Assembly (NCBI GenBank): GCA_965217775.1
Contig: CBDCJH010000002.1
Coordinates: forward strand, 5,504,001-5,568,000
DNA: 64,000 nt
Reading direction: 5' to 3'
Origin: Acidobacteriota bacterium
GTDB taxonomy: Bacteria > Acidobacteriota > UBA6911 > RPQK01 > JAJDTT01
In this document: positions 45,223 to 64,000 of the stretch, in pieces
Layout of the letters: every line of letters starts with the position of its first letter
How positions within the stretch are numbered: the first letter of the stretch is position 1
Translations under genes and position numbers: made by a program
The notes under the pieces: generated by a model
Told to the model about the DNA's origin: nothing
What the model saw: only the letters and a program-made list of their open reading frames with translations
Databases searched by the model: none

Positions 45223-45291
45223 AGAGATTCCGATTCGAGCTATCCGTCTTTGTTGACAAGAAGTCGAAGCGATGACCCTGGGAGGTTAAGA

Positions 45292-46734: not shown

Positions 46735-46756
46735 TCAAGCCTGGGGGAAAACAAGT

Positions 46757-47503
46757 ATGAACGAAAGACTGGCCGGCAAGGTATTTCTGATCACTGGGGC
46801 CGCAGGCGGAATCGGGACGGCCATCGCCCGGGCGGTCACCGCGGAGTCGGCAACGGTGGTGCTCTGTGACATCAATCTCGAAGGGGCGCGGCGACTGGCG
46901 GATCGGTTGACCGGGGAAGGACGGTCGGCGGCCGCTTACGCCCTCGATATTTCCCGCCCCCCTGAGATCGCGGCCGTTATCGAGGAAGTCGTAAAGAGGC
47001 ACCAACGCATCGACGTGCTGGTGAACAATGCCGCCATCTGCCCTCGAATCCCTTTGGAGGAGGTGACCGAGGCGGATTTCGATCGAATTGTGGGAATCAA
47101 TCTCAAGGGGACCTTCTTCGTGTCCCAGGCGGTGTCGCCGGTGATGGTCCGGCAGGGCTGGGGAAGGATCGTGAACCTCAGCTCCATCGGCGCGCGGACT
47201 GGCGGCGTGGCCGCTTCTTCGGTCTATGCCGCTACCAAGGCGGGCATCATCGCCATCACGAAGTCGTACGCTCGGACACTGGCTCCCAATGTCACCGTGA
47301 ATGCGATCGCTCCCGGAGTCGTCGATACGGAGATGATGCGGATTCCGTCCGAGCAGGTGGCAGCCATCGTCGACCAGATTCCCCTGGGACGGTTGGCCGA
47401 TCCGGAGGAGATCGCCTCCGTGGTCCTCTTCCTGGCTTCGAAGGAAGCGTCCTATTTCACCGGCGCCACACTCGATGTCAACGGCGGCTGGTTCATGTAC
47501 TAG
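46757..47503 (+). CDS. Short-chain dehydrogenase/reductase (FabG-like SDR)
   Basis: TGAAGGIG, NNA, YAATK, NAIAPG, DVNGG. Confidence 0.92.
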   Translation: MNERLAGKVFLITGAAGGIGTAIARAVTAESATVVLCDINLEGARRLADRLTGEGRSAAAYALDISRPPEIAAVIEEVVKRHQRIDVLVNNAAICPRIPLEEVTEADFDRIVGINLKGTFFVSQAVSPVMVRQGWGRIVNLSSIGARTGGVAASSVYAATKAGIIAITKSYARTLAPNVTVNAIAPGVVDTEMMRIPSEQVAAIVDQIPLGRLADPEEIASVVLFLASKEASYFTGATLDVNGGWFMY

Positions 47504-47661
47504 GGGGGAGCGGCGGCTTCCTAGCCGCCGGGAGGGGCGGTTTCCTAGCCGCCCACAGGAACGGCGGTTTCCAACCGCCGATCTCCAGAGTGACATTTTG
47601 GTGTCGAAGAATGGGCGACTGGAAATCGCCCCTCCAATGGGGGACTGGAAATCGCCCCTCC
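47504..47661. repeat. Convergent cluster of five GGAG-headed REP-like palindromes
   Basis: Three + copies (ggagcggcggcttcctagccgccg etc.) and two - copies (gggcgactggaaatcgcccctcc) between convergent stop codons. Confidence 0.75.
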
Positions 47662-48788: not shown

Positions 48789-48832
48789 GGTCTCAACCTA
48801 GTCAGTGTTTGAGGACGGGATATGGCGGAGAA

Positions 48833-51800: not shown

Positions 51801-52429
51801 CTCCGTTCCGCCCGGGGAGCTGGCTCCAGCCCATTCTTCTCCAGTTGGGCGAGGATGTGGCGGTCCATGGGGAGATCCGACCAGCCCTCGTTCTCGACCT
51901 GAGGCAGCGGCGGTTGAACCACCGGTTGGAGACTCCACCAGTGGCTCCGCTCCTCGAAGACTTCTTCCCATGAATCGTCCGCCACATACGCGGTTTTGGC
52001 TGCGGGGGGCGCGCCGCGCGGGTCGGGCGCTCCCAGCAGGATCCATTGTTCGAAGTCGTCGATAGCCTCGGACGAGAGTTGAGCTTCCCCCAGGGGCATC
52101 GGGGTTCGAGAGCCATCGTGCCGGATGGCTCGAATCAGGGGACTCTGGTCCGGATCGCCCGGCACCAACGCCGGTCCCGACTGGCCGCCTTCCTGCCATC
52201 CGCCCCGATAATCGAGACGCAGGCCCCCCATGGCCTGGATTTCGCTGTGACAACTCTGACAGTTGTCGACCAGGACGGGACGGATTCGCTTCTCGAAGAA
52301 CTCCAGCTCATCCGGGCTGATTGTCTTCTCGACACTTTCCGCCGTCCCTCCGAGCGCCCAAGCGCAGACCACCGTCAGGGCGGCAACTCGCAAGAAGTGT
52401 TTCGGCATCCCTACTGCGAAGCTATTCAT
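48833..52429 (-). CDS. PSCyt1/DUF1549/DUF1553 (PSD1) cytochrome c protein
   Basis: FFEKRIRPVL..NCQSCH, GERWARHWMD, CARCHDHK, GSGRLELA, RVFVNRVWQ, THPQLLD, PAQALALLN; start uncertain (52408/52429/52459). Confidence 0.9.
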   Translation of the reverse strand: MNSFAVGMPKHFLRVAALTVVCAWALGGTAESVEKTISPDELEFFEKRIRPVLVDNCQSCHSEIQAMGGLRLDYRGGWQEGGQSGPALVPGDPDQSPLIRAIRHDGSRTPMPLGEAQLSSEAIDDFEQWILLGAPDPRGAPPAAKTAYVADDSWEEVFEERSHWWSLQPVVQPPLPQVENEGWSDLPMDRHILAQLEKNGLEPAPRAERSTLVRRLSLVLTGLPPTAEQVEAFVSDPDEGAYEHLVESLLESPHFGERWARHWMDVVRYSDTYGYEWDIPAKGAWRFRDYLIRAFNDDLPFDRLIREQIAGDMLEPPRINADQQINESLIGPMFYMMGEKRHGDSVIFNGIHQEMVDDKIDAFSKAFQAMTVACARCHDHKLDAVAQKDYYALAGVLMSSRWGTNTLDLPDRNRQVIEGLSTLKKRMRRPLADWWLEASHDIPAYILAAQARIDGDEAAGQLAQGLKPERLQAWEKALRFEPVEEPAESEEKAEEAEEREAAEKKSEEEEAEDKPALKDILYPWLQLHASAKQLGSVDSRWSELAQEYGTAHQERSQTNARNFPLLADFREELPEGWSVDGVGLRDGPVSNGDFTVALEGTEAVDMLLPAGLFTHAISPRLNGALRSPFLDPTSPRVVSLEVNGGDLSTRRLVVDNGFLTEREWGYMDNDELHWVCHTQNAADKSAWPKSAVEAAETRNYLEFTTKTSNPYFPPRYGLGGCKDEEIKKDDCGSHDPKSWFGITRAYLVTKGKVTNYGAIFDCVESPADELSRFEPLFSGDPPSSLTDAATRYGRWLTASLEDWSNDRADEDDVLLINWMLHRKLLPNSLEDREPVRELVASYRMVEKRLLEPQTINGMVDLDPGRDYRVNIRGVYEDLGDLVPRGHVRVLRAADNGRPEGSGRLELANLVASPKNPLTGRVFVNRVWQWVFGTGIVSTPNDFGHLGDQPTHPQLLDYLADDFVRNGWSVKHLVRTLVMSETFRQSGQASAQAVEADPSNRLWHHMPLRRLDAESIRDSLLAVSGRLDRSLFGEPINPFRKMEDATKRLFSGPLDGDGRRSIYLKMTVMEPSKLLATFNQPKPKIPTGRRDVTNVPAQALALLNNPFVAGQAEFWAQELVAAPHESPRERLAYMFKRAFNRNPEAQELTRWSEAVNDIAALHEREAASEAARSPVMHSAQVWKDTAHALFNAPEFIYVR

Positions 52430-52469
52430 GGTCGAGGCAGCCCTCCAAGTCACGAGCAACCGTGCCGCT

Positions 52470-53468
52470 TCAGAATACCGCGATTGGATTCATGGGAGAA
52501 CCCGTCCCTCCCTCCACCGGAATGGGGGCCGTGGTCAGGAGAAACTCCCAGCGTTGACGCTCTTCCGCGGCTTGGCTCAACGCCTCCAGGTCGCAACTGT
52601 CGAAGATGTGAACTCCCATCGCGATCAGGACCACCTGGTGGATCGGATGGGTGATCCCTTCCACCAGGGAAGGATGGACGTCGCTGGCGGCTTCACTTCC
52701 CAGCATCGCCACGTCCCGGTCCTTCAGCCATTTGGCGCAGGAGGCGTGGAGGCCGGACGAGGCCTTCGTCACGTCCCAGGGGCCCAGGGCCGCTCGCCGC
52801 GCCCAGCGGCCGGTCCGAATGAACACCACGTCCCCACTCGAAACCTTGAATCCCGCCTTCTTTTCCCAAGCCTCCAGGTCTTCGGGAAAGATGGGAGTCC
52901 CGGGTTCCAAGTAGGGCACTCCCTTCAGTCTCGGTATGTCGAACAGGACCCCGCGGGTGAAGATGCCGTTCTTGAGCTTGTGGATGTCGAGCTGTTGGGC
53001 GCCTTCCGCGGTGACCTCCTCTTGGGCGTAACCGTTGTACATCTTGCCCCGGTAGAACATGTGACAGAGGGCGTCCAGATGGGTATGCGCGTAACCGTGG
53101 AAAGAGACCGAGAGCGTATCGACGGCGTACTGGGCATTCTCGTCGAGTCCGGTCATGGTCATGACGTGCTCATAGGGAGAGGCATTGTCGATGGACTTCT
53201 CCGTGGTCGCATCGCGCGACAGGGACACGGTGAAGCCATCCTTGACCAGCGCGGCGGCCTGCCTCCGCTTTTCCGGAGTAATCAGGTTGAGGGCGCCCAA
53301 CTGATCGTCCGGGCCCCAGCGACCCCAGTTGGAAAGCTCCTCCATCCAGCGATCGACGTCTTCGCTGGTCAGGGGATATCGCGGTTGGGCTTGAGGCTCC
53401 GGAGCAAGGCAGTGGATCAGGACGGGAAGCAATAGCCCCGCAATAAGCAAGACTCGAATCGTCGGCAC
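52470..53468 (-). CDS. Cyclase-family (kynurenine formamidase-like) metallohydrolase with signal peptide
   Basis: NWGRWGPDDQLGALN, HTHLDALCH, RGVLFD, GDVVFIRTG, GGTGSPMNPIA; GTG start at 53468 with AGGGGG RBS. Confidence 0.85.
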   Translation of the reverse strand: MPTIRVLLIAGLLLPVLIHCLAPEPQAQPRYPLTSEDVDRWMEELSNWGRWGPDDQLGALNLITPEKRRQAAALVKDGFTVSLSRDATTEKSIDNASPYEHVMTMTGLDENAQYAVDTLSVSFHGYAHTHLDALCHMFYRGKMYNGYAQEEVTAEGAQQLDIHKLKNGIFTRGVLFDIPRLKGVPYLEPGTPIFPEDLEAWEKKAGFKVSSGDVVFIRTGRWARRAALGPWDVTKASSGLHASCAKWLKDRDVAMLGSEAASDVHPSLVEGITHPIHQVVLIAMGVHIFDSCDLEALSQAAEERQRWEFLLTTAPIPVEGGTGSPMNPIAVF

Positions 53469-53537
53469 GGTGTTCCCCCTGGACTCGGAATCAGATGATG
53501 GACACATTATTACTTCCCCGACCGTCCGGTTCAAACC

Positions 53538-53617
53538 AGGAGGGGGGACATCCTTTTCCCCCATTGGGAAGGGGGACATCCGTGTCCCCCGAATCGGGGG
53601 TTAAAAACCCCCGCTCC
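53538..53617. repeat. GGAG/GGAA-headed REP-like cluster
   Basis: ggaggggggacatccttttccccc, gggaagggggacatccgtgtccccc, and inverted cgggggttaaaaacccccgctcc. Confidence 0.65.
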
Positions 53618-53636
53618 TATTCCATAGCGCTACGGT

Positions 53637-54689
53637 CTACGCCAGCGTATTCGTCCACCCAATCAGAAACATGGAAGCGGACAAAACCAGAATGGAGACC
53701 CCCATCACCGCCATGGACTGCCGTGACGCGCCCGTCCACTCGCCGCTCAACGCCCCCCATACGGTGGCGGCGATGATTGACATGGCGGAAGCCATGGGCC
53801 AGCCGATGACTTCGCGAAGGTCGCCCAGCATGGAACCTCCGATGCCGTAGGTGACGACCCCGCAGATCCACAAGATTCCCATGGCCGCGCCCACGCCGTA
53901 GTGAAATGGCTGCCTCCGGAAAATGTGCCAGCTCCTCCCCTTGACGATCAGGTAGACACAGTAGCCGGCGTTCACCAGGAAACCCGCGGACAAGGCCACG
54001 ACCCAGATGACGTTCGAAGCCATCGAGGGCGAAGTGCCGAGCAGGACGGCCTGATCGGCGAGCTTGATCCCATAGGCAAAGCTCAGGTTCAGCATGGGCG
54101 AGAGTATTCCCGAAAGGGCGGCCACGAGGAGCCCCAAGAGCAGCGGCGCCGCCCTCGTGATTTTCTTCGCCGCCGTCTCGGATCCCTCCGCAGGATCCTG
54201 GAGTCGTCCAGGCGATTCCTCTCTCAACTTCCCCGCCCAGGCGGAGAGCAGGACTCCAACGACGACCAGCAGGACTCCGGCGCAGATCACCATGCCCTTG
54301 ACCGTCAGGAAATCGTCCCAATGGAGCAGAACGAATGGCGCCATGGTGCCGACCGCCGCGGTCAGGCCCATGACGATGGCGTAGCTCAGGGCCAGGCCGA
54401 CCATCTTCAGCGCCAGTCCGTAGAGGACGGACCCCACTCCCCAACCCATGCCGAACAGGAAGACCAGAAGCAGGTCGCGGGTTTCGGCCGCCGCCAGGAC
54501 GGCAAACAGAGACTCGATAGTGAGGAACCCGAGGAGCCAGGGAATCAAGATCATTGCAGTCACGGAGAAGAGAAGCCAGATATGCTCCCATTTCCAACTG
54601 CGCGTGAACTTGAGTCCCAGTCCAAAGGCGGAATTCGCAGTAGAACCCGTCAGGATCACGAGAATGCCGAGGCCGAAACCGGTTTCCAT
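53637..54689 (-). CDS. RhaT-like (L-rhamnose:H+ symporter, DMT superfamily) sugar transporter
   Basis: About 10 hydrophobic segments; WKWEHIW, IPW, GMGWGVG...YGL, LSYAIVMG, SGILS.MLN, GFLVNAGYC, WG.LSGEW. Confidence 0.8.
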   Translation of the reverse strand: METGFGLGILVILTGSTANSAFGLGLKFTRSWKWEHIWLLFSVTAMILIPWLLGFLTIESLFAVLAAAETRDLLLVFLFGMGWGVGSVLYGLALKMVGLALSYAIVMGLTAAVGTMAPFVLLHWDDFLTVKGMVICAGVLLVVVGVLLSAWAGKLREESPGRLQDPAEGSETAAKKITRAAPLLLGLLVAALSGILSPMLNLSFAYGIKLADQAVLLGTSPSMASNVIWVVALSAGFLVNAGYCVYLIVKGRSWHIFRRQPFHYGVGAAMGILWICGVVTYGIGGSMLGDLREVIGWPMASAMSIIAATVWGALSGEWTGASRQSMAVMGVSILVLSASMFLIGWTNTLA

Positions 54690-54811
54690 AGGTAAATCTC
54701 CCGGTCAGAAACTACCTATTCCAGATCACAATTTGAAGGGGCGGGATGGTGGACAATCCAGCCGCCGTTGCCGGATCATGGATGGTCCGGTCGGGTTTGA
54801 ATGGAGGTGAC

Positions 54812-55966
54812 ATGGAGACCATCAAGTTGCCGAAGCTGGCCATCACCATGGAAGAAGGGACCGTCGTGCGATGGCTCAAGCAGGAAGGCGACCCCATCGC
54901 CAAGGGTGAACCCGTGGTCGAGATCGAGACCGAGAAGGCCAATGCCGAGATCGAATCCAACTGCGCCGGCTACCTCAAGAGAATCGCCGTCAAGGAAGGT
55001 GAAGCTGCACCGGTGGAAGTCGTGCTGGCCTATATCGCCAACAACGAAGCGGAATTGAAGGCCCCCTTCGAAGCCGCCGTCCGCGAGCTGAAGCCAAAGG
55101 CCCAGGTAGTTTCCACGAAACCGTCACCCAGGGCCGCGCACCGAACCCCGCAGCGTCCCGCAGCCGGACCGAAAGGCCCGGTGCGCGCCGCTCCGGCGGC
55201 CCGCCGGTTGGCCCGGGAACTGGGCCTGGATCTCGCCTCCATCCCGGGGACCGGTCCCGGGGGACGCATCCTGCCGGCGGACGTTCGCCGGGCGCAGGCC
55301 GCTGCCGCCGAACCGCCGAAAGACCCACTCGATAAACGAAAGCCGATCATTGCCACCCTGACCAAGTCCATCCAGTCGATTCCCCACATCCACATCTCCA
55401 GGGAGCTGCCTGCGGATGGGTTGATCGCCCTGAAGCAACGCACCCGCGACATCACCTACACGGAGATCCTGTTCAAGGCACTGGCGCTGGCGGTCGAGGA
55501 ATTTCCCGCGTTCAAGACTTCACTGGTGGAAGACCGGCTCTTCCAGCCGGAGAAGACCAGGGTGGGGTTCGTCGTCGACGTGGAGGACGCCCTGGTTATC
55601 CCGACCATCGAAGACCCGGCCAACAAGTCGATCCAGGACTTGGCTGCCGAGGTTCGCGGTCTGATCCGCCGGGTCCGGCATGGGACCCTCGATCACGCCG
55701 ACGTGACCGGCGCCACGGTGAGCCTGAGCAATCTTGGAATGCACGAAGTCGACCTCTTCACGGCCGTCATCCCTTACGGCCAAGTCGCCGTGCTCACCAC
55801 CGGCCGCATCCGATATCAGCCAACGATCCAAGAAGGATCGCTCGTGGAAGTCCCGCGGCTCTGGGCGAACCTGACCGTGGACCATCGCCTGATCGACGGC
55901 GTCGCCGCCGCGAAGTTTCTGAAGACGCTGGCCAACCTGCTCCGGGATGGGAGCGTGGGTTTGTAA
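54812..55966 (+). CDS. 2-oxoacid/acetoin dehydrogenase E2 (dihydrolipoamide acyltransferase)
   Basis: Lipoyl domain EIETEKAN, subunit-binding AAPAARRLARELGLDL..IPGTGPGGRI, catalytic SNLG and DHRLIDG; GGAGG RBS. Confidence 0.92.
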   Translation: METIKLPKLAITMEEGTVVRWLKQEGDPIAKGEPVVEIETEKANAEIESNCAGYLKRIAVKEGEAAPVEVVLAYIANNEAELKAPFEAAVRELKPKAQVVSTKPSPRAAHRTPQRPAAGPKGPVRAAPAARRLARELGLDLASIPGTGPGGRILPADVRRAQAAAAEPPKDPLDKRKPIIATLTKSIQSIPHIHISRELPADGLIALKQRTRDITYTEILFKALALAVEEFPAFKTSLVEDRLFQPEKTRVGFVVDVEDALVIPTIEDPANKSIQDLAAEVRGLIRRVRHGTLDHADVTGATVSLSNLGMHEVDLFTAVIPYGQVAVLTTGRIRYQPTIQEGSLVEVPRLWANLTVDHRLIDGVAAAKFLKTLANLLRDGSVGL

Positions 55967-55973
55967 CCTCGAA

Positions 55974-56040
55974 TTGGGGGACAGGGATGTCCCCCTTCCC
56001 AATGGGGGACAAGGATGTCCCCCCTCCATGTCCCCCTCTC
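55974..56040 (-). repeat. REP-like palindromes inside the catabolic operon
   Basis: gggggacagggatgtcccccttccc and gggggacaaggatgtcccccctcc, reverse complements of the 53538 type. Confidence 0.65.
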
Positions 56041-56094
56041 GTATCCTTTACGCCAACTTGGGACGCAAGCTAGAATGACCCGACCTCTGGTCCC

Positions 56095-57300
56095 ATGAGA
56101 CTTTACGAGTTCGAGTCGAAGCAGCTTCTGGCCCGGAGTGGGATCAGGGTTCCCCGATCTCAACTGATCACTTCAGCCTCTTCTTTTTCCCTGTCTGAAG
56201 ACCTCCTGCCCGGAATCGTCAAAGTCCAGACCTTGAGCGGAAAGCGGGCCCTGCGGGGCGGAGTTAAGCCGGTCGACGATGTCGACGCCGTCAGAGACTT
56301 TGCCAAACGATTCCTGAAGCAGGGATTCGGGGACGAACCGGTCAATCGCATTCTCCTGGAAGAACGGATCGACTTCGCAGCGGAATACTTCCTAGGCATC
56401 ACCTACGACAGCCGTGCCAGGAAACCCCTTCTGCTCTTCTCCCGCCATGGCGGCGCGAATATCGAAGAGACCGCCCGGTCGAGTCCGGACCTGGTCAAGA
56501 CCCAGTTGCTACCGCCCGGCGGAGACGTTCGCACCTACCACGCCGTCGAATGGCTTTCCGAGTGGGGTTTTTCCGCAAAGCTGCTGCTGCGTCTGGCGGG
56601 CCTGGTTCGCAAGATGGCCCGCTTGTTTCACCGCTACGACGCTCTGCTCCTGGAGTTCAACCCCCTGGCGAGCACGGCTGCACAGGATCTGGTGGTCCTG
56701 GACTGCCATCTGGACATCGACGACGATGCGCTGAAGCGCCAGTCGCTGGACTTCGAGGGGCTGTCGAACCGGATGGAGGGCGCGCGCCAGCCAACCGAAT
56801 TCGAGCAGCAAGCCCGCGAGATCGACCAACTCGATTACCGCGGCGTCGCCGGCCGGATGATCGAGTTCGAGGGCAATCTGGGACTGCTCATCGGAGGTGG
56901 AGGCGCCAGCCTCACCGCCTTCGACGCGGTGCGAAACTCGGGAGGGACCCCCGCCAACTACTGTGAGATCGGTGGCAACCCGACGGTCAAAAAGGTGCAG
57001 GAATTGACGAAACTTCTGGTCAGCCGGCCGGCCGTCGAAAAGCTGGCCGTGATCATGAACGTGGTCAGCAACACCCGGTCGGACCTGGTGGCCCGGGGTG
57101 TGATCAAGGGGATGGTCGAGGCGGGCAGAGACCCGGAGCAGACAATTGCCGTGTTTCGTCTCCCCGGCGCCGGCGAAGAAGAGTGCAGGAAGATACTCAA
57201 GCACTACGGCATCCCCTTTTGCGGACGGGAAGTGTCCATTGACGAGGCCGCCGCCCTGGCGGTCGCGCGGGCCGGGAACACGGCGGATCAACGCGTCTGA
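56095..57300 (+). CDS. ADP-forming acyl-CoA ligase beta subunit (succinyl-CoA synthetase beta-like, divergent)
   Basis: MRLYEFESK, ATP-grasp VK...G.R...GGVK, EYFLGI, GGANIEE, EFNPL, LD..LDIDDDA; ligase domain IGGGGASL, PANYCEIGGNP. Confidence 0.85.
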   Translation: MRLYEFESKQLLARSGIRVPRSQLITSASSFSLSEDLLPGIVKVQTLSGKRALRGGVKPVDDVDAVRDFAKRFLKQGFGDEPVNRILLEERIDFAAEYFLGITYDSRARKPLLLFSRHGGANIEETARSSPDLVKTQLLPPGGDVRTYHAVEWLSEWGFSAKLLLRLAGLVRKMARLFHRYDALLLEFNPLASTAAQDLVVLDCHLDIDDDALKRQSLDFEGLSNRMEGARQPTEFEQQAREIDQLDYRGVAGRMIEFEGNLGLLIGGGGASLTAFDAVRNSGGTPANYCEIGGNPTVKKVQELTKLLVSRPAVEKLAVIMNVVSNTRSDLVARGVIKGMVEAGRDPEQTIAVFRLPGAGEEECRKILKHYGIPFCGREVSIDEAAALAVARAGNTADQRV

Positions 57301-58211
57301 TGGGAATACTGATCGATCGGAGCACCACGATTCTGGTTCAGGGGATCACCGGGCGTGAAGCCAGTTTCTTCACGCGCGAATCTCTCGATTACGGGGCCCG
57401 GGTCGTGGCCGGAGTGACTCCCGGAAAGGGAGGCCAGGAGGTCTATGGAATCCCCGTCTATGATTGTGTGAAGAACGCCCTTCGCAACCACCGGATCGAC
57501 GCCGGCGTGGTCTCGGTCCCTCCCTTCGCGGTCCGGGACGCTGCCCTGGAAGCCGTCGAAAACGGAATTCCCTTGCTGGTCATCATGACGGAGCGCGTCC
57601 CGCGGCGGGACGTTGCCGCCCTGTTGCACTTTGCTCGAGAGAACGGCACCCGTGTCATCGGTCCCAACAGCTTGGGCCTCATCTCTCCCGGCGAGTCCAA
57701 ACTGGGAGCCGTGGGCGGCAATGTCGAAAACACGCTGCGAACCTTTACCCAGGGACCCGTGGGAGTCATGTCGCGCAGCGGCGGGATGACGAGTGAATTC
57801 GCCAATCTCCTGGGCCAGGAAGGGCTCGGCCAGTCCACTTGCGTCAGCGTCGGAGGGGATCCCCTGATCGGCTCTACTTTTCAGGACCTGTTCCCGTTGT
57901 TCGAGGAAGACAAGCAGACCCGGGCGGTCGCCCTCTTCTGCGAACCCGGCGGGATCATGGAGGAGGAGTTCGCCCGATTCTATGCTGCCCGGACCGATCC
58001 GAAACCGGTGGTGGCCTTCATCGCGGGGAGATTCGCCGACCGGATGCCGGGCACCCGATTCGGCCATGCTGCCGTGATCGTCGAGGGAGACCGCGGCAGC
58101 ACCAGGAAAAAGAGAGCGCTCATGAAGAAAGCCGGGGTCCACGTGGCCGAACGGCTGTCGGATGTCCCGAAAATCATAAGGGGGCTGCTGAGCCATGGGC
58201 ATGTTCATTGA
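57300..58211 (+). CDS. ADP-forming acyl-CoA ligase alpha subunit (succinyl-CoA synthetase alpha-like)
   Basis: VQGITG, GVTPGKGG, IGPNSLG, SRSGG, VGGDP, phospho-His FGHAA; TGATG coupling to the beta gene. Confidence 0.9.
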   Translation: MGILIDRSTTILVQGITGREASFFTRESLDYGARVVAGVTPGKGGQEVYGIPVYDCVKNALRNHRIDAGVVSVPPFAVRDAALEAVENGIPLLVIMTERVPRRDVAALLHFARENGTRVIGPNSLGLISPGESKLGAVGGNVENTLRTFTQGPVGVMSRSGGMTSEFANLLGQEGLGQSTCVSVGGDPLIGSTFQDLFPLFEEDKQTRAVALFCEPGGIMEEEFARFYAARTDPKPVVAFIAGRFADRMPGTRFGHAAVIVEGDRGSTRKKRALMKKAGVHVAERLSDVPKIIRGLLSHGHVH

Positions 58212-58419
58212 GGTCGCGGTTCGGGACCCGGGCTTTCTCAAGACCGGGGAATCCCGCAAGCTGCTGGCGGCCTGCGCCGTGAACATTTTCGAGCCGGCGG
58301 AGGAAGGAGTCGCCGTCAATCGCGATCAGGAAGACGAATGCACGCTGTGCGGCCGCTGCCTCGAGATTGCAGGCGACCGTTTGGAGATCGTGAAGCTCTA
58401 CGAGAAGGCTGAACTATAG
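58195..58419 (+). CDS. Small ferredoxin-like protein (single Fe-S cluster)
   Basis: 74 aa with CAVNIF and CTLCGRC; four Cys in total; overlaps the alpha-subunit stop. Confidence 0.7.
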   Translation: MGMFIEVAVRDPGFLKTGESRKLLAACAVNIFEPAEEGVAVNRDQEDECTLCGRCLEIAGDRLEIVKLYEKAEL

Positions 58420-58468
58420 ACGGGATCTAGGCTTTCTCCCTGCGGAGAGGTAGGGGAGAGGAAAGAGC

Positions 58469-59446
58469 ATGCGAGAGATCACCTACTCACAGGCCATCAA
58501 CGAAGCGATTCGGGAAGAAATGCGCCGCGACTCCGACATCGTCCTGCTGGGCCAGGACATCGGTGTGTACGGTGGGACCTTCGGGGTCTACCGGGGACTT
58601 TGCGAGGAGTTCGGTGAGGACCGCGTCCGTGACGGGCCGCTTTCGGAGGCGGCCACTGCGGGCTTCGGGATCGGTCTCGCCGTGGCCGGCATGCGGGCGA
58701 TCGTGGAGATCGAGTTCATGGACTTCTCGCCGCTGATCCTGGACGCGGTGGCCAATCAGGCCTCCAAGATGCGCTATTTCTTCGGGGGCAAGGTCAAGGT
58801 CCCCCTGGTGCTGCGGATGCCCAGCGCCAGCAAGCTGGGACTGGGCGCCCAGCATTCCCAGAGCCTCGAGGCGTGGTTCATGCACACTCCGGGTCTGCTC
58901 ATCGCGATGCCGGCGACCCCCTACGACGCCAAAGGACTGCTGAAGACCGCCATTCGCCAGGACAATCCGGTCATCTTCATCGAACATGTCCGGCTCTACG
59001 CCACCAAGGGAGAGGTGCCCGAGGAGGAGTACCGCCTGCCCTTCGGCAGCGCCCGGATCGTTCGCGAGGGTACGGACATCACCGTCGTGGCCATCGCCAT
59101 GATGGTCCAAGAGGCGGTTCAAGCCGCCAACGAGTTGGAGAAGGAGGGGATCAGCGTCGAGATCATCGATCCCCGCACCCTGGCTCCCCTGGATGGCGAG
59201 ACCATCGTCGAGTCGGTGAAGAAGACCGGCCGCCTGCTGGTGACCCACGAGGCCTACCGGACCGCCGGGGTCGGGGCCGAGATCGGGCAGGTCGCCCTGG
59301 AGGGTGCCTTCGACTACCTGATCGCCCCCATCCGCCGCGTCGCCGGCAAGGACCAGCCGATCCCCAGCGGACCGTTGCAGGACGAGGTCTTTCCGGACCG
59401 CAACAAGTTGGCCGCGGCCATCAGAGATCTCATGGAGGAGGGATAG
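58469..59446 (+). CDS. ThDP-dependent dehydrogenase E1 beta subunit (PdhB/AcoB-like)
   Basis: GQDIGVYGG, DGPLSE, EIEFMDF, AQHSQSLEAW, PATPYDAKGLL, IDPRTLAPLD. Confidence 0.93.
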   Translation: MREITYSQAINEAIREEMRRDSDIVLLGQDIGVYGGTFGVYRGLCEEFGEDRVRDGPLSEAATAGFGIGLAVAGMRAIVEIEFMDFSPLILDAVANQASKMRYFFGGKVKVPLVLRMPSASKLGLGAQHSQSLEAWFMHTPGLLIAMPATPYDAKGLLKTAIRQDNPVIFIEHVRLYATKGEVPEEEYRLPFGSARIVREGTDITVVAIAMMVQEAVQAANELEKEGISVEIIDPRTLAPLDGETIVESVKKTGRLLVTHEAYRTAGVGAEIGQVALEGAFDYLIAPIRRVAGKDQPIPSGPLQDEVFPDRNKLAAAIRDLMEEG

Positions 59447-59451
59447 GAGTC

Positions 59452-60435
59452 ATGACAGAGCAGGCCCAAAGCGCCGCGACCGTCAGCTCGGACCAGGCTC
59501 TGGCCTGGTACCGCCAGATGGTCCACATCCGGAAGTTCGAGGAGAAGGTGGTGGAACTCTCCGGCAGGGGACTGGTCAGCGGTTCCACCCACCCCTGCAT
59601 CGCCCAGGAGGCGGTCTCCGTGGGCTGCATCTCCGCCTTGAGCGCAGAGGATATGGTGCTGGCCACCTACCGTGGCCATGGCGCGTTTATCGCCCGGGGC
59701 GGAGACCCTAAGGCCGCAATGGCCGAGATCCTCTGCCGGGAGACCGGTTGCTGCAAGGGCAAAGGGGGGTCCATGCACCTGTGCGACCCCGACATCGGCT
59801 TCCTGGGAACCAACGCCATCGTGGCGGCTCATATCCCCATTGCCTCGGGTGTGGCCCTGGCCAACCAGTTGAAGAAGACCAATCGGGTGACCCTCTGCCT
59901 TTTCGGCGACGGGGCCTCGTGTGAGGGTGCCTTCTACGAGACCTTGAACATGGTCGCCCTCTGGAAGATTCCCGTGGTGCTGGTCTGCGAGAATAACGGC
60001 TACGCGATTTCGGTCCCGACAAAGAAATCGTTGAGCGTTGCCGAGATCGCCACCCGGGCTCAAGGTTTCGACATGCCCGGAATTTCCATCGACGGGAACG
60101 ACATTGCGGAAGTCTACGAAACCACGAAGCAGGCGGTGGAACGGGCGCGCGACGGTGGGGGGCCGACCCTGATCGAATGCAGGACCGTCCGCTGGGAACG
60201 CCACAGCGCCCTCTCGGCCGGATTCTACGAATCGCGGGAAGAGAGAAAACGCTGGCAGGTCGTGGATCCTATCCCGAGGTTTCGCACTGTCCTCACCGAG
60301 GAGATGTCCATCCCGGCATCGGTACTGGAAGGGATCGAGCAGGAGGCAGCCGAGGCCGCCGATGAAGCCGCGGATTTCGCCATCCGGAGCCCCTTTACGG
60401 GCACGGCGCAGCTCGAACAAGATATCTTTGCTTGA
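59452..60435 (+). CDS. ThDP-dependent dehydrogenase E1 alpha subunit (PdhA/AcoA-like)
   Basis: True start ATG 59452 (AGGAG RBS); IRKFEE, QEA, YRGHG, GKGGSMH, ThDP motif GDGA...CENNGY, GPTLIE. Confidence 0.93.
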   Translation: MTEQAQSAATVSSDQALAWYRQMVHIRKFEEKVVELSGRGLVSGSTHPCIAQEAVSVGCISALSAEDMVLATYRGHGAFIARGGDPKAAMAEILCRETGCCKGKGGSMHLCDPDIGFLGTNAIVAAHIPIASGVALANQLKKTNRVTLCLFGDGASCEGAFYETLNMVALWKIPVVLVCENNGYAISVPTKKSLSVAEIATRAQGFDMPGISIDGNDIAEVYETTKQAVERARDGGGPTLIECRTVRWERHSALSAGFYESREERKRWQVVDPIPRFRTVLTEEMSIPASVLEGIEQEAAEAADEAADFAIRSPFTGTAQLEQDIFA

Positions 60436-60440
60436 TCGCC

Positions 60441-60502
60441 GGGAGGGGCGATTTCCAGTCGCCCTCCCCTCGGAGGAACGGGGCAAGAATGCCCCACTCC
60501 CA
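60441..60502. repeat. Inverted pair of GGAG-headed REP-like palindromes
   Basis: gggaggggcgatttccagtcgccc and inverted ggggcaagaatgccccactcc. Confidence 0.65.
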
Positions 60503-60536
60503 ATGGGTTGTTTCTGAGTCAGAAGGAGAACCCGAA

Positions 60537-61598
60537 ATGAGTCCCCAGGAATCCTCCGGTCCGAGAGTGATTCTCTGCGGTGTCGGAGGCGTCGGTCGCA
60601 GAGTGACCCGTCTGTTGAGCGTCCGTCCCGGCTACCGGGTCGTGGCGGCCTACACCAGGAACCGGGACTTGGCTGGTCAGGACCTGGGTAGTTTGGCCGG
60701 TATCGAACCCAACGGGATCATCGTCACCACCGACCGGGACGCCGCCCTGCGGCAACCCGCCGACATCGTGATCGTCGCCACCACCTCATTCCTGAGAGCG
60801 GTGGCGCCCGAACTGCGAGCGGCGGTGGAACACAACCTCAACGCCATCACCACGGCCGAGGAGGCGGCCTTCCCCTGGCTGACCGACGAGGCACTCACCG
60901 ATGAACTGGATCAACTGGCGCAGGACCGGGGGGTCTCGCTCCTGGGGGTGGGACTGAACCCCGGCTTCATTTTCGACGCGCTGCTGTTGACGGCCACCGG
61001 ACCGGCCTGGGATGCACGCAGGATTCGGATCAGGCGGGTCGTGGACGTCTCGCGGTTCAGCGCCACCATCCAGCGGCGGTTGGGCATCGGTTTCTCCAGG
61101 GAGAGGTTCGAGGCGGGGGTCCGAGCCGGAACCATCTTCGGCCACATCGGCTTTCCTCAATCCTTTCATCTGGCCGCAAAATGTCTGGGCCGGACGCTGG
61201 ACGACTACAGGAAGTCGTTCGAGCCGGTGATCGCCGAGCGCCCCTTTTCCAATGACTTTCTTACGGTCCAGCCGGGCCAGACCGTGGCCTTCATTCAGCG
61301 GGACGAGGGGGTCATCGGCGGAAAACCCTGGATCGATTCCGAGTTCGTCGCTTTCATTGATCCGTCCGCCGGAGATTTCGTCGCGCAGGACTCGATTTCG
61401 ATCCAGGGATACAACCCACTGAATCTGACCATCAGGCCGGGCTGCCAGCCGCAACTGGGGTCGGCGGCCATGGTGGCCAATTCCATCCCCAAGGTGATTG
61501 CGGCGAAACCCGGCTTCCGGACCGTGGCGGATCTGCCGCCCCTCTGCCCGCCGCCGACGGACAGCGACCGGTTGGCGGAAGCCGCCCGGAACTGGTGA
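60537..61598 (+). CDS. 2,4-diaminopentanoate dehydrogenase (Ord)-like / amine dehydrogenase family oxidoreductase
   Basis: Rossmann GVGGVG, TTS, NAITTAEE, GVGLNPGFIFD, GHIGFPQS, NSIPKVIAAKPG; AAGGAG RBS before ATG 60537. Confidence 0.8.
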   Translation: MSPQESSGPRVILCGVGGVGRRVTRLLSVRPGYRVVAAYTRNRDLAGQDLGSLAGIEPNGIIVTTDRDAALRQPADIVIVATTSFLRAVAPELRAAVEHNLNAITTAEEAAFPWLTDEALTDELDQLAQDRGVSLLGVGLNPGFIFDALLLTATGPAWDARRIRIRRVVDVSRFSATIQRRLGIGFSRERFEAGVRAGTIFGHIGFPQSFHLAAKCLGRTLDDYRKSFEPVIAERPFSNDFLTVQPGQTVAFIQRDEGVIGGKPWIDSEFVAFIDPSAGDFVAQDSISIQGYNPLNLTIRPGCQPQLGSAAMVANSIPKVIAAKPGFRTVADLPPLCPPPTDSDRLAEAARNW

Positions 61599-61621
61599 TC
61601 CAGGGAGTTCGTCCAGCGACC

Positions 61622-62764
61622 ATGGACAAAATACGAACGATACAAGTCATTCCCCTCATCAGACGGTTGGACCAGGTCTTCAGCGGAAGCACCTACCAGA
61701 TCGTTTCGCGGAATACGATCTACGCCCGGATCGAGACGGAAGGTGGGATCGTCGGCGAGGCCTTCGGAGGGGACGAGGACATCCACCAGGAGAAGGTGGT
61801 CCGGATCGCCAATGAAAGTCTGGCGCCCCGCCTGATCGGCAATGAGATCTGGCCGGTGGAGCCGCTCTGGCGCAAGATGTTCACCACCCCCGATCTGCCG
61901 CTGCACAACCGCGGCATCCACGCCTTGGACATGATCAACCACGCCATCCTGATGCAGGCCATCGCCATCATCGACATGGCGATCTGGGACGCCGTCGGCA
62001 AGTCCTTCGGCAAACCTTTGTGGCAGTTGCTGGGCGGGTTTAGAAGCCGAGTCCCCGTCGTCGGGATCGGCGGTTATTATAAGCCGGGTGCGTTGGAGGA
62101 GTTGGGCGAGGAGATCCAACTCTGCATCGATCTCGGCCTGGCGGGAATCAAACTGAAGGTCGGGAAAGCCTCGGTCGACGAGGACATCCGCCGAGTGGAA
62201 TACATTCGGAAGCACTTTGCCGACACCTTCGTGCTCGCCTGTGACGCGAACCAGGCCTGGACCTACGAACAGGCTCTCCGGTTCGCTCAAGGTGTCGCGG
62301 ACCTGAACCTGGAGTGGCTGGAGGAACCCGTCCGCTGGTACGACCAGTTGGAGGGGTTGAAGCGGTTGAGGAGCTCGACCGCCATTCCCCTGGTCGCCGG
62401 GCAAGGGGAGATCTCCAAATGGGGGTGCCGCGACCTCATCCTGGGCGGTTGCGTCGACACGCTCAACGTCGACGCCACCATCGCCGCCGGCATCACCGAG
62501 TGGATGAGGATCGCCTCCTTCGCCGAAACCATGGACGTCAACATGGGCCACCATGAGGAGCCCCAGGTTGCGCTGCATATGTTGGGAGCCATCCCCAACT
62601 CCACCTATGTCGAGATCTTCCATCAGCGGGAACGGGACCCCATGTGGTACGAATTGGTGGCTGATCTGCCCCGCATCTCCGGTGGCTTCATGTATCCCAA
62701 CGACGCCCCCGGACTGGGCTGGCACTACAATGCCGAGGTCATCGATCGATACGGCCAGCCGTGA
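61622..62764 (+). CDS. Mandelate racemase-subgroup enolase-superfamily enzyme
   Basis: DMAIWDAVGK, GGYY, KLKVG (KxK), CDAN, WLEEP, GQGE, NVDA, GHHE, PGLG. Confidence 0.9.
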   Translation: MDKIRTIQVIPLIRRLDQVFSGSTYQIVSRNTIYARIETEGGIVGEAFGGDEDIHQEKVVRIANESLAPRLIGNEIWPVEPLWRKMFTTPDLPLHNRGIHALDMINHAILMQAIAIIDMAIWDAVGKSFGKPLWQLLGGFRSRVPVVGIGGYYKPGALEELGEEIQLCIDLGLAGIKLKVGKASVDEDIRRVEYIRKHFADTFVLACDANQAWTYEQALRFAQGVADLNLEWLEEPVRWYDQLEGLKRLRSSTAIPLVAGQGEISKWGCRDLILGGCVDTLNVDATIAAGITEWMRIASFAETMDVNMGHHEEPQVALHMLGAIPNSTYVEIFHQRERDPMWYELVADLPRISGGFMYPNDAPGLGWHYNAEVIDRYGQP

Positions 62765-62830
62765 CCGGCATTTGTCGCCGCCCCGACCGGTCACCTGCTC
62801 GTTGGCTCGAAGAGCATCCCGATCTCGTCT

Positions 62831-63592
62831 ATGACTGAGGAGCAATTCCACGGGATATTGGTCTGGACGATCTTCCTGACCGCCGTTGTGAGCTTCGCGA
62901 GCCTATTGGTTCTGGCTGCTCCCTACGGCCGGCACTACTCCGGGAAGGGCTGGGGACCGCACATTTCCAACCGGACCAGTTGGGTCCTCATGGAGCTTCC
63001 GTCGGTGGTTCTCTTCCTGTTCGTTTATTTCGCTGGAGCAGCCGTATTCCAGACTGTTCCGCTGGTCCTTCTCGGAGTCTGGCAGTGCCACTATCTCAAC
63101 CGGACGTTCGTCTATCCTCTGCGAACTCGAACCGCAGGCGAGAAAATGCCTCTCGTGGTAATGGCTTGCGGCTTCACTTTCAACTCGATCAACGCCTACG
63201 TCAACGCCCGTTTCATCTCCGAATTCGGTGAGTATGGGTCGGAATGGCTGGCCGACCCGCGATTCCCGGCCGGTCTCGCCATCTTTCTGGCCGGTCTGGC
63301 CCTGAACGTCCACTCTGACAACATCCTTTTGAACCTGCGAAAAACCGGGGAGTCCGGGTATGCGATTCCTCAGGGCGGCGCCTTCCGTTACGTCTCGTGC
63401 CCGAACTACCTCGGGGAAATAATGGAATGGGCGGGCTGGGCGCTGGCGACATGGTCGCCGGCTGGACTGGCCTTCTTCGTATACACCGCGGCAAACCTGA
63501 TCCCGAGAGCGCGCAGCCACCATCAGTGGTACCGGGCGCGGTTTCCTGACTATCCCGCCAACCGAAAATCCCTGATTCCGGGCCTGATCTGA
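62831..63592 (+). CDS. 3-oxo-5-alpha-steroid 4-dehydrogenase (steroid 5-alpha-reductase, SRD5A-like) membrane protein
   Basis: APYGRH, WVLMELPS, HYLNRTFVYP, NVHSDNILLNLRK, YAIPQGG, VSCPNYLGEIMEW, NL.PRA..HHQWY, YPANRKSLIP. Confidence 0.9.
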   Translation: MTEEQFHGILVWTIFLTAVVSFASLLVLAAPYGRHYSGKGWGPHISNRTSWVLMELPSVVLFLFVYFAGAAVFQTVPLVLLGVWQCHYLNRTFVYPLRTRTAGEKMPLVVMACGFTFNSINAYVNARFISEFGEYGSEWLADPRFPAGLAIFLAGLALNVHSDNILLNLRKTGESGYAIPQGGAFRYVSCPNYLGEIMEWAGWALATWSPAGLAFFVYTAANLIPRARSHHQWYRARFPDYPANRKSLIPGLI

Positions 63593-63619
63593 CCGTCGCC
63601 AGCACGACTCGAAAAAAGA

Positions 63620-63672
63620 TTGACAGCGGCCACAAGAACTCTGTATTGTAGAGTAACTCTGTATTACAGAGT
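63620..63672 (+). promoter_or_regulatory. Sigma70-like promoter overlapped by two tandem palindromic operators
   Basis: TTGACA (63620-25), 18 bp, TATTGT (63644-49); ACTCTGTATTGTAGAGT (63638-54) and perfect ACTCTGTA-T-TACAGAGT (63656-72). Confidence 0.7.
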
Positions 63673-63703
63673 AGTATGGTGACCCTGTACTGAGGAGGAA
63701 TCC

Positions 63704-64000
63704 ATGACCGACAACACGCAACTCAAGGAAGACATCGCATATGTTCGCGCCGTCGCCGAACGATCGAGGACGAAGCCTGTACGTCCAATTTATCTTCTGT
63801 GGGCGATGATCGGACTATGTGGATTCGTGCTGGTCGACTTCGTCGACGACAAGAAGTGGATTAGCATCTACTGGCTCTTCGCTGCACCGATCGGATTCGC
63901 GCTGTCGTTCTGGCTCGGTTTCCGGGCGGGTCGCAACCAGGGCGCCACCAGTCGAGAGACGGGAATTCGCCACAGTCTTCACTGGCTGGCGTTCATGACT
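63704..64000 (+). CDS. Hypothetical membrane protein (5' part; runs off window edge)
   Basis: GAGGAGG RBS; MTDNTQLKEDIAYVRAVAERS then hydrophobic segments (IYLLWAMIGLCGFVLV, IYWLFAAPIGFALSFWLG); open to the edge. Confidence 0.7.
   Translation, partial: MTDNTQLKEDIAYVRAVAERSRTKPVRPIYLLWAMIGLCGFVLVDFVDDKKWISIYWLFAAPIGFALSFWLGFRAGRNQGATSRETGIRHSLHWLAFMT

Follow-up and report, generated by a model that had tools for sequence, protein, structure and literature searches.

An acidobacterial gene cluster uniting a remodelled E1/E2 pair, a succinyl-CoA-synthetase-like ligase and acid-sugar dehydratases: a candidate ATP-conserving catabolic module

The stretch analysed here, 64,000 nt of the forward strand of an Acidobacteriota genome (assembly GCA_965217775.1, contig CBDCJH010000002.1, positions 5,504,001 to 5,568,000; hereafter the window, to whose own positions coordinates refer), contains eight tightly packed plus-strand genes at 54812-62764. 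They encode a dihydrolipoyl acyltransferase (E2), the two subunits of an ADP-forming acid-CoA ligase related to succinyl-CoA synthetase (SCS), a 74-aa cysteine protein (Fdx), the beta and alpha subunits of a thiamine diphosphate (ThDP)-dependent E1, an NAD(P) enzyme resembling Ord and the native amine dehydrogenases, and MR1, a dehydratase of the mandelate racemase (MR) subgroup of the enolase superfamily (Table 1). The cluster appears to join known kinds of enzyme in an undescribed way. Judging from context and chemistry, we consider it an even call that it forms a specialised module for breaking down an oxidised sugar, in which a 2-keto-3-deoxy acid would be converted to an acyl-CoA and then yield ATP. 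The open reading frame (ORF) list, Pfam and NCBIfam agree on these assignments, and confirm the initial annotation, made from the letters alone, in its eight co-oriented, overlapping or closely spaced genes and in the divergent RhaT-like, cyclase-family, PSD1 cytochrome and second enolase-family genes; a short-chain dehydrogenase (SDR) gene is to be added to this neighbourhood.

The cluster is not a housekeeping locus. Separate copies, whose presence the initial annotation had proposed to check, exist: a canonical sucC lies at C2:4804870 (C2 denoting a contig of the window's genome, G000), reaches 542 bits where 375 is the cut-off and has sucD adjoining, and four further E1alpha/E1beta/E2 sets are found elsewhere in the genome. 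These four are ordered alpha, beta, E2; of all five, only the window set runs E2 ... beta, alpha. The lone dihydrolipoamide dehydrogenase (Lpd, E3) above its cut-off (C2:6109898, TIGR01350, 491 bits > 409) is unlinked to all five sets. The missing E3, which the initial annotation had singled out, is thus real at the locus but is a genome-wide property and does not distinguish the cluster, whose E2 retains an E3-binding domain. The Ord-like gene is single-copy, and at least 9 MR paralogs are present. In tblastn searches the genome yielded neither a family III CoA-transferase nor a MaoC homolog, and a single, distant CitE-like gene (C2:674910).

The domain content is that of a 2-oxoacid dehydrogenase complex, with E1alpha and E1beta domains, a three-domain E2 and an Lpd in the genome. 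The E2 translation carries the lipoyl-lysine motif ETEKA and the sequence DHRLIDG, which we take to be the ETEKA and DHRxxDG signatures of E2 enzymes. It falls below all NCBIfam equivalog cut-offs (best TIGR01349, 206 vs 445 bits) and, with 171 bits on PF00198 vs 233-281 for the four paralogs, is the most divergent of the five E2 proteins. E1alpha likewise stays below the equivalog level of pyruvate dehydrogenase (PDH; TIGR03182, 343 < 394), its nearest characterised type being PDH-type E1 (human PDHA, 190 bits), and E1beta passes only a subfamily PDH model (352 > 321 bits). The oddity of this E1 resides in clade-specific motif changes, not in its overall hidden Markov model (HMM) score.

Statements on this clade rest on the best 80 loci listed from a metagenome scan with E1beta (L numbers denote sequence records and loci from the scans). 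Among the loci listed with both subunits on the contig, beta precedes alpha only in L133 (81% E1beta identity) and L119 (61%); the contig of L152 (62%) ends inside E1beta, and the remaining listed loci (at most 57%) run alpha then beta, usually followed by E2. An 81-row E1beta tree (FastTree) places the window, L039, L061, L041, L133, L119 and L152 in one clade (support 100), separate from the genome's four own paralogs. Six of these seven rows are ordered beta then alpha, L152 being the truncated one, and all seven adjoin MR1, Ord or an acid/acyl-CoA enzyme. Compared with 65 other E1alpha sequences, the seven members share G54A, which gives AQEA for GQEA (G in 65/65 others), and Y249V and G253R, which give VRWERHS for TYRxxGHS and place a new Arg beside the conserved His. 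Against 74 other E1beta sequences, the changes are E29Q, T56G, I58L, I63T, M82E and M104F, with GQDIG for GEDxG, DGPLxE for DTPIxE and YF for YM. These motifs presumably line the ThDP and substrate sites.

Within the clade, the partners of E1 vary. L119 encodes, in order, an amino-acid permease, a copper amine oxidase, a RhaM-like protein, E1beta, E1alpha, a 175-aa lipoyl plus E3-binding protein, an Ich-like MaoC hydratase, a family III CoA-transferase, an Ord-like protein (51%) and, on the opposite strand, a CitE-like lyase. L152 runs MR1 (53%), propeller protein, MaoC, CoA-transferase, E1beta, and L133 repeats the pattern of L041, with E1beta, E1alpha and an isomerase-like gene. The layouts of L119 and L152 indicate that the thiokinase has been swapped within the clade for a CoA-transferase plus hydratase, MR1 and Ord being variable. 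The 175-aa protein (L119:10750-11277), a stand-alone gene directly after E1beta-alpha, shares 38% identity with the N-terminal region of the window E2. L126 and L131, the nearest canonical E1 loci, have the ordinary alpha-beta-E2 layout, lie among seemingly archaeal housekeeping genes and are uninformative on function. The best plasmid match, L209 (NZ_CP072144.1, a Rhizobium plasmid), is an E1alpha/E1beta/E2 set (46% identity to the window E1alpha) that lies between a glucitol/sorbitol phosphotransferase system with an NAD(P)H oxidoreductase and a thiamine biosynthesis operon. This uncharacterised set hints at other links between E1/E2 and sugar genes, and belongs to a different clade from the window E1.

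The ligase has the features of the SCS superfamily, namely an ATP-grasp beta subunit, a CoA-binding alpha subunit and the GHA phosphohistidine motif, and alpha H256 is invariant in 38/38 sequences. Beta scores below the SucC cut-offs (TIGR01016, 226 < 375; second model, 218 < 370) and alpha below those of SucD (TIGR01019, 290 < 353; second model, 288 < 336). The malate thiokinase model NF010647 (MtkA) assigns beta 158 bits vs a cut-off of 604, and beta is equidistant from E. coli SucC (152 bits) and CcsA (6HXQ_B, 148 bits). The ligase had been called divergent in the initial annotation. It is indeed far from SucC, from which its family is split in a tree by a long branch (support 100), and the acidobacterial E1-linked sequences form their own clade (support 100) beside 31 other rows; it also belongs to a widespread family of ligases found with an Fe-S protein and a CitE-type lyase. 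A literature search found no published description of this three-part module.

Genomic neighborhood analysis of the ligase used the best 80 loci listed from a scan with the beta subunit, 61 of which extend for 4 kb or more downstream of beta; neighbors were counted within 6 kb, and their identities Pfam-checked on a sample of loci. Relatives with 44-52% identity occur in Desulfobacterales, Myxococcota, Chloroflexota and other groups among the matches listed. The small Cys protein has a homolog in 53/61 loci, an HpcH/CitE-like lyase is present in 44/61 and a mesaconyl-CoA-hydratase-like gene in 18/61; E1beta-alpha accompanies the ligase in 4/61, comprising three same-genus records and L041. The linked lyases reach 226 bits on CitE and ∼180 bits on the itaconate-pathway RipC/Ccl model, below both cut-offs. 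Linkage to such lyases and mesaconyl-CoA-hydratase-like proteins suggests that the thioesters of this ligase family resemble malyl- or citramalyl-CoA. In the window, no CitE/HpcH-type acyl-CoA lyase is encoded among the Pfam-scanned genes (25844-63592). Only 7 beta and 2 alpha residues of the window ligase deviate from those of its lyase-linked relatives at sites with at least 90% conservation there. The ligase seems to have changed little, the E1 a great deal. One relative, the ligase beta gene of a delta-proteobacterial metagenome-assembled genome (MAG; L050:10001-11173), contains an in-frame stop at about codon 56 and is a pseudogene, a case of recoding or a sequencing error.

The 74-aa protein, labelled a ferredoxin in the initial annotation, earns that name by descent rather than by profile. 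It has no Pfam match at E≤0.001 (Fer4 models 14-16 bits vs cut-offs of 21-27), but it is homologous, over a full-length alignment, to true 8-Cys ferredoxins at the equivalent position in related loci. Instead of the eight Cys and two CxxCxxCxxxCP motifs of a 2x[4Fe-4S] ferredoxin, it retains only C27 and C49xxC52xxC55, which are invariant in 40/40 small proteins, and its CP is changed to CA. The Desulfobacterales-type proteins have eight Cys and pass Pfam Fer4; those of Myxococcota, Chloroflexota and the window have four and fall below. Aligned together (window plus 39 loci), the small proteins form a decay series from 8-Cys to 4-Cys with a C-terminal KLYE conserved throughout. From this pattern, the window protein likely binds one [4Fe-4S] cluster as the remnant of two, and its gene linkage suggests that it is probably a third ligase subunit.

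Conservation is tight within the genus and survives rearrangement beyond it. Across 401 sampled genomes of the phylum, ligase-beta orthologs with 88-92% identity occur in 5/5 same-genus genomes, the next best match having 37%; an E1beta scan of 251 genomes (threshold E≤1e-125) returned 5/251, namely the window's own genome and 4/4 of the same-genus genomes sampled. In both phylum-wide scans, orthologs are confined to the window's genus. The whole neighborhood is intact in L039 and L040 (public Acidobacteriota MAG records). The more distant L041, a record titled Acidobacteria gp18 that belongs to genome G401, encodes MR1 (63% identity), SCS-beta (59%), SCS-alpha (63%), Fdx (67%), E1beta (81%), E1alpha (65%) and, beside E1, the RhaT-like transporter (55%). 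It additionally has a GntR regulator, a TonB-type outer-membrane protein and a sugar-isomerase-like gene after E1alpha, and neither E2 nor Ord is found at this locus. A second locus of G401, on another contig, supplies an E2 ortholog (52-56%), MR2 (74%) and the SDR (65%), the latter two as reciprocal best matches to the window genes, together with a Gfo/Idh/MocA oxidoreductase, a KARI-like gene and a 2-hydroxyacid dehydrogenase. The set common to the window genome and G401 thus comprises RhaT, SDR, MR2, MR1, E2, E1beta-alpha, ligase beta/alpha and Fdx. The E2 of G401 (L208:4103-5189, contig C221) occupies two overlapping frames, lipoyl plus E3-binding at 4575-5189 and catalytic at 4103-4585, through either a frameshift or an assembly error. 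Since the window genes are not sole copies and the set is conserved elsewhere, in 5/5 same-genus genomes and rearranged in G401, both outcomes that the initial annotation had named against itself fail to appear, which favours its reading.

MR1 has the hallmarks of the MR subgroup, with a KxK motif, D/E/E metal ligands, an Asp-His pair and the capping plus barrel fold. K177, K179, D208, E234, E263, D284 and H310/H311 are invariant in 36 sequences, and we take these residues to fill the KxK, metal-binding and D-H roles. Its best NCBIfam match, L-talarate/galactarate dehydratase (NF047820), stays below equivalog level (172 vs 500 bits); at ∼55% identity it falls into a large uncharacterised subfamily whose automatic JGI name is D-arabinonate dehydratase. 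Structurally, the MR1 model (pLDDT 92.8) matches MR-family structures at Z 40-51 and is closest to 4H83, 3NO1 and 3MSY, which have no assigned function (Z 48-51, 40% identity), followed by TalrD/GalrD (Z 45.6-45.9, 28-29% identity), a Bordetella enzyme solved with m-xylarate and L-lyxarate (Z 45.3) and L-talarate dehydratase (Z 44.3). For MR2, a structure-sequence search returned no close solved relative.

The Ord-like protein scores below the Ord equivalog (NF040740, 271 < 400), and its sequence suggests that it is not a true 2,4-diaminopentanoate dehydrogenase. Its nearest solved relatives are 7XDU and AmDH4. Aligned with AmDH4 (6G1M), it keeps E102, N135 and R161 as well as a Phe at the position of F168, and shows N163->V and H264->F. 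In AmDH4 we take R161 to bind the carboxylate and N163 and H264 to contact the 2-amino-acid end of the substrate. None of the other ornithine-fermentation enzymes, presumably a racemase, an aminomutase and a thiolase, shows up in the locus-wide Pfam results; no search for them by family name was made. According to one study, only group G2 of the native amine dehydrogenases is assigned to ornithine fermentation, and the native substrates of group G1 are unknown, synteny having given no clue (PMC11164908). The initial annotation had made this enzyme a pathway member: it does lie in the window operon, but it is outside the set conserved in G401, whose best homolog is only 34% identical.

From the gene content, conservation, paralogy and motif changes described above, we propose the following reactions, substrate, ligase direction and Fe-S cluster. 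A sugar would enter through the RhaT-like symporter and be oxidised by the SDR to a sugar acid, the cyclase-family hydrolase perhaps serving as lactonase. MR1 and/or MR2 would dehydrate the acid to a 2-keto-3-deoxy (4-hydroxy-2-oxo) acid, which E1beta-alpha/E2 would oxidatively decarboxylate to a 3-hydroxyacyl-CoA, the complex being reoxidised by the genome's shared Lpd docking on the E3-binding domain of E2. The ligase, with its small Fe-S subunit, would then convert thioester, ADP and phosphate to the free acid and ATP, in analogy to the sequence 2-oxoglutarate, succinyl-CoA, succinate. This keeps the outline of the initial annotation (dehydration or deamination, ThDP cleavage, transfer via lipoyl to CoA, ATP formation), which fits the context without amounting to proof.

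Should the scheme hold, the chances are roughly balanced that its substrate is a dicarboxylic sugar acid, so that the dicarboxylate version is about half as probable as the general scheme. The preference derives from the ties of the ligase family to malyl-/citramalyl-CoA-type esters and from the best named relatives of MR1, which are aldarate dehydratases. By one route, a pentarate, or 4-hydroxyglutamate via the Ord-like enzyme, would give 4-hydroxy-2-oxoglutarate and then malyl-CoA, ending in malate plus ATP. By another, a hexarate would pass through 5-keto-4-deoxyglucarate and 3,4-dihydroxyglutaryl-CoA to 2,3-dihydroxyglutarate plus ATP, and the second MR dehydratase would turn 2,3-dihydroxyglutarate into 2-oxoglutarate. 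CoA-transferase III, MaoC and CitE-type enzymes act on 3-hydroxy- or enoyl-dicarboxylyl-CoA esters. A 3-hydroxyacyl-CoA suits MaoC hydratases and, if dicarboxylic, also CitE lyases and the ligase, so that the three cluster variants fit one scheme; the replacement of the ligase in L119 and L152 by a family III CoA-transferase and an Ich-like MaoC, with a CitE-like lyase nearby in L119, supports the proposal. Chemical precedent exists as side activities, according to a preprint: the mammalian 2-oxoglutarate dehydrogenase complex converts 2-keto-4-hydroxyglutarate to malyl-CoA, and succinate-CoA ligase interconverts malate and malyl-CoA (bioRxiv 10.1101/2024.09.25.614871). A tentative reading, doubtful as it stands, is an ATP-conserving lower pathway for aldaric or uronic acids, perhaps hydroxy-amino acids, that is undescribed so far and would run from a dedicated E1/E2, acting on a 2-keto-3-deoxy-aldarate, through a malyl-CoA-type thioester to a three-subunit Fe-S thiokinase. 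It would end in malate or, if a second MR-type dehydration follows, in 2-oxoglutarate.

Several observations weigh against this proposal and partly lend themselves to other explanations. The Ord-like enzyme has no step in the sugar route and is not conserved with the rest; the 175-aa protein of L119 lacks the E2 catalytic domain, and the scheme does not explain how its acyl-lipoyl group would be unloaded; and the fold of MR1 discriminates little, Z scores being nearly tied across the enolase superfamily (40-46). A RhaT-type symporter suggests a neutral (deoxy)sugar and not a diacid, and the JGI name of the MR1 relatives, D-arabinonate dehydratase, denotes a monocarboxylic substrate. Both are accommodated if the substrate is a neutral 6-deoxyhexose of the L-fucose/L-rhamnose type or a pentose, processed through a 2-keto-3-deoxy-aldonate to a 2-deoxy-aldonoyl-CoA (e.g. 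3,4-dihydroxypentanoyl-CoA) and then to acid plus ATP, with the Ord-like enzyme acting at C4 of the 4-substituted pentanoate. RhaT-like transporters occur in both genomes, L119 has a RhaM-like mutarotase, and the SDR is of the classical type of sugar and KD-sugar-acid dehydrogenases. The Ord-like pocket, if the AmDH4 residue roles are as we presume, points the same way, in that it keeps R161 and the F168-aligned Phe and loses N163 and H264; the Phe, if it corresponds to P12 of the published scheme, which is our guess, would favour a methyl-ended over a carboxyl-ended substrate. We nevertheless regard a neutral substrate as unlikely: the ligase relatives, from which the window ligase has hardly changed, are tied to CitE-type lyases and hence to substrates with a free carboxylate, a free 2-deoxy acid would need further enzymes that are not seen, and two MR dehydratases would be redundant. 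The isomerase-like gene after E1alpha in L041 and L133 would suit a ketose. Its matches are weak (SftI sulfoquinovose (SQ) isomerase 69 bits, AraA 48 bits), but they invite a scheme in which, once the sugar is isomerised or oxidised, E1 would attack an alpha-hydroxyketone or ketose in the manner of acetoin dehydrogenase E1 or transketolase, with ThDP cleavage of a C-C bond beside the keto group; the acyl fragment (acetyl, glycolyl or oxo-dicarboxylyl) would pass over lipoyl-E2 to CoA and yield ATP, and the aldehyde fragment would be oxidised and MR-dehydrated. The heavy changes in the E1alpha loop and in the GQEA and DTPIxE motifs might make sense if the substrate were something other than a 2-oxoacid, the closest match to E1alpha is PDH-type E1, and a sulfo-transketolase route reportedly combines a ThDP enzyme and an ADP-forming sulfoacetate-CoA ligase. 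Against this stand the MR dehydratases, whose 2-oxoacid products are natural E1 substrates, the lack of an isomerase in the window itself, and the lack of AcoX/AcoR-type genes among those seen (the AcoC model NF011457 matches only the lipoyl part, 89 vs 307 bits); we rate the scheme as clearly unlikely. Sulfoquinovose or sulfonate catabolism was set aside, no sulfite exporter, sulfolyase or aldolase being present and the SftI match in L041 reaching only 69 vs 700 bits.

The direction of the ligase is a further point of doubt, as in CitE-linked relatives it may run in the ATP-consuming way. In the window it might then activate a free hydroxy-dicarboxylate to its CoA ester, E1/E2 serving a separate or later step without ATP gain. 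This would agree with the pairing of the ligase with a lyase able to consume the CoA ester in 44/61 family loci, with the position of E1beta-alpha in the lyase's place downstream of Fdx and with the separation of E2 from the ligase in G401. Yet the cluster would contain two makers of acyl-CoA and no consumer, the genome offers no CoA-transferase III or MaoC and only the distant CitE-like gene, and the E1/E2 reaction is irreversible, which leaves this arrangement distinctly improbable. Finally, the E1 scores sit near those of PDH models (E1beta 352 > 321 for the subfamily; E1alpha, with 343 bits, within the range of 323-376 covered by BLAST segments of its paralogs), and the genome has many MR paralogs, as though extra PDH/BCKDH-type and SucCD-type paralogs merely happened to lie beside sugar-acid genes. 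A chance assembly of this kind is very improbable given that the ligase/Fdx/E1beta-alpha linkage survives at 59-81% identity in a rearranged context, that the E1 motif changes are specific to a clade which in L119 and L152 again lies beside MR1, Ord and acyl-CoA enzymes, and that the ligase is far from SucC on a long branch (support 100).

The eight genes are packed as an operon, in one orientation and with tight gaps or overlaps. E2 is followed by beta after 128 nt, and the alpha gene shares 1 nt with beta and 17 nt with Fdx; E1beta begins 49 nt after Fdx and E1alpha 5 nt after E1beta. GGAGGTGAC precedes the ATG of E2. E1alpha starts at ATG 59452, the codon at 59443 being ATA. For the Ord-like gene, ATG 60537 with an upstream AAGGAG is most likely the start, as is ATG 61622 for MR1, in agreement with the start of its homologs in an alignment; longer ORFs from TTG 60432 (Ord-like) and GTG 61595 (MR1) would each give a 4-nt overlap with the preceding gene.

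Table 1. Genes of the cluster and its surroundings, with positions in the 64,000-nt window and supporting profile matches
Feature	Position	Strand	Evidence
E2 dihydrolipoyl acyltransferase	54812-55966	+	PF00364 lipoyl, PF02817 E3-binding, PF00198 catalytic
SCS/CCS-like ADP-forming acid-CoA ligase, beta subunit (ATP-grasp)	56095-57300	+	PF08442, PF16114
SCS-like ligase, alpha subunit (CoA-binding + ligase domains; GHA phosphohistidine motif)	57300-58211	+	PF02629, PF13607, PF00549
Fdx, 74-aa degenerate ferredoxin-like Cys protein	58195-58419	+	homology, four invariant Cys
E1beta	58469-59446	+	PF02779 135 bits, PF02780 129 bits
E1alpha, ThDP-binding	59452-60435	+	PF00676, 257 bits
Ord/native-amine-dehydrogenase-like NAD(P) enzyme	60537-61598	+	PF19328, PF01113
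MR1, MR-subgroup enolase-superfamily acid-sugar dehydratase	61622-62764	+	PF13378, PF02746
RhaT-like sugar/proton symporter, divergent from E2	53637-54689	-	PF06379; NF010022 221 bits < 369 cut-off
Cyclase-family metal hydrolase	52470-53579	-	PF04199
PSCyt1/PSCyt2/PSD1 cytochrome-domain protein in divergent operon	48833-52459	-	Pfam
MR2, second MR-type dehydratase	47661-48788	-	PF13378, PF02746
Classical SDR dehydrogenase, converging on MR2	46757-47503	+	PF13561, PF00106
Steroid-5-alpha-reductase-family membrane protein	62831-63592	+	PF02544

A promoter and terminator scan of 53400-64000 was uninformative (4 promoter-like signals vs 1.9 expected; 6 terminator-like vs 8.4 expected), and no Rfam family reached its gathering score in 44000-64000. 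Contigs from RNA libraries of two studies, which are sequences of relatives, match the operon at 92-99% identity. A 3,071-nt contig corresponds without a break to 57924-60958, covering the end of alpha, Fdx, E1beta, E1alpha and the start of the Ord-like gene (∼92% identity), and a 1,789-nt contig to 57766-59551. Stretches of the operon that the contigs leave uncovered carry no weight. Being from relatives and possibly including DNA carry-over, these contigs are weak evidence that places the genes in such libraries and do not prove a single transcript.

Among the flanking genes, the cyclase gene is conserved within the genus only, at 91-92% identity in L039 and L040, and no ortholog was found in the G401 loci examined; a lactonase role is conceivable. 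The PSCyt/PSD1 gene, which is conserved in the same genus at 90-91% identity, lies between the cyclase gene and MR2 without a DUF1501 partner. Another PSCyt1/PSCyt2/PSD1 protein followed by a DUF1501 protein is encoded at 40840-45222, which we take to be the usual pairing. The PF02544 gene begins 66 nt after MR1 and is 89-91% identical in L039 and L040, with no evident pathway link. A 363-aa ORF on the minus strand (46505-47596) was dropped as a shadow of the SDR gene on account of its GC3 pattern and its lack of a Pfam match. It still has 77-82% tblastn matches in relatives, which indicates that such matches can mirror DNA conservation. Elsewhere in the genome, a second RhaT-like gene (45% identity; G000:C2:4062347-4065518) lies ∼1.2 kb from a KARI-like gene, a homolog of which (39%) sits in the E2/MR2 locus of G401, possibly marking a related second sugar cluster.

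If the proposed scheme is true, an oxoacid dehydrogenase complex plus thiokinase would gain one extra ATP per sugar acid, and the prediction of such pathways would change, both in Acidobacteriota of soil and in further uncultured groups. On the tentative aldarate or uronate reading, a 2-oxoacid dehydrogenase complex would for the first time be assigned to the catabolism of sugar acids, and Fe-S-bearing SCS-like ligases would gain their first physiological role outside a lyase context. The proposed substrates are all obtainable or enzymatically makeable, which renders the question directly testable. Three orphan families could also be approached through the cluster: SCS-like ligases that have an Fe-S subunit, the E1 clade of reversed order and the native amine dehydrogenases, for which natural substrates had not been found according to PMC11164908.

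Compared with known systems, the cluster resembles the pair of 2-oxoglutarate dehydrogenase and SCS, in that a ThDP/lipoyl decarboxylation of a 2-oxo-dicarboxylate is proposed to precede an ADP-forming phosphohistidine thiokinase. Unlike 2-oxoglutarate dehydrogenase, the window E1 is of the heterotetramer type (alpha plus beta), nearest to PDH and not to SucA; unlike SucCD, the ligase fails the SucC/SucD cut-offs, has an extra Fe-S protein and clusters with sugar-acid dehydratases. With the modules of ligase, small Fe-S protein and CitE-type lyase it shares homologous beta, alpha and Cys proteins in the same order, family-invariant residues included; the differences are that the window and L041 have no lyase, that an E1beta-alpha pair follows Fdx and that four Cys are present, not eight. 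MtkAB with malyl-CoA lyase (serine cycle) and CcsAB with Ccl (Hydrogenobacter, 6HXQ) are likewise two-subunit ADP-forming ligases, which act on hydroxy-dicarboxylates and are partnered with a C-C lyase. The window beta subunit is far from the MtkA model (158 vs 604) and no closer to CcsA than to SucC (148 vs 152 bits), and neither system, to our knowledge, includes an Fe-S subunit or is partnered by E1/E2. The Ord-like enzyme shares with Ord and the native amine dehydrogenases the PF01113 plus PF19328 fold, the catalytic Glu and R161 (AmDH4 numbering); it departs from Ord in its score below the cut-off (271 < 400) and in N163->V and H264->F.

The upper part of the scheme, with sugar dehydrogenase, lactonase and an MR-type dehydratase leading to a 2-keto-3-deoxy acid, follows the oxidative aldarate and non-phosphorylative sugar routes. 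The oxidative uronate/aldarate pathway employs Udh, GarD/GudD or TalrD/GalrD, KdgD and 2-oxoglutarate semialdehyde dehydrogenase, and the non-phosphorylative pathways for fucose, rhamnose and pentoses include the Weimberg, Dahms and diketo-hydrolase routes. We know of no non-phosphorylative sugar-acid route that conserves thioester energy; those known to us end in aldol cleavage, hydrolysis or a semialdehyde dehydrogenase. Their lower-pathway families (DapA-type dehydratase/decarboxylase, FAH hydrolase, HpcH aldolase, aldehyde dehydrogenase) are absent among the Pfam-scanned window genes. Unlike these routes, the window's lower part would consist of an oxoacid dehydrogenase complex and a thiokinase, adding one ATP.

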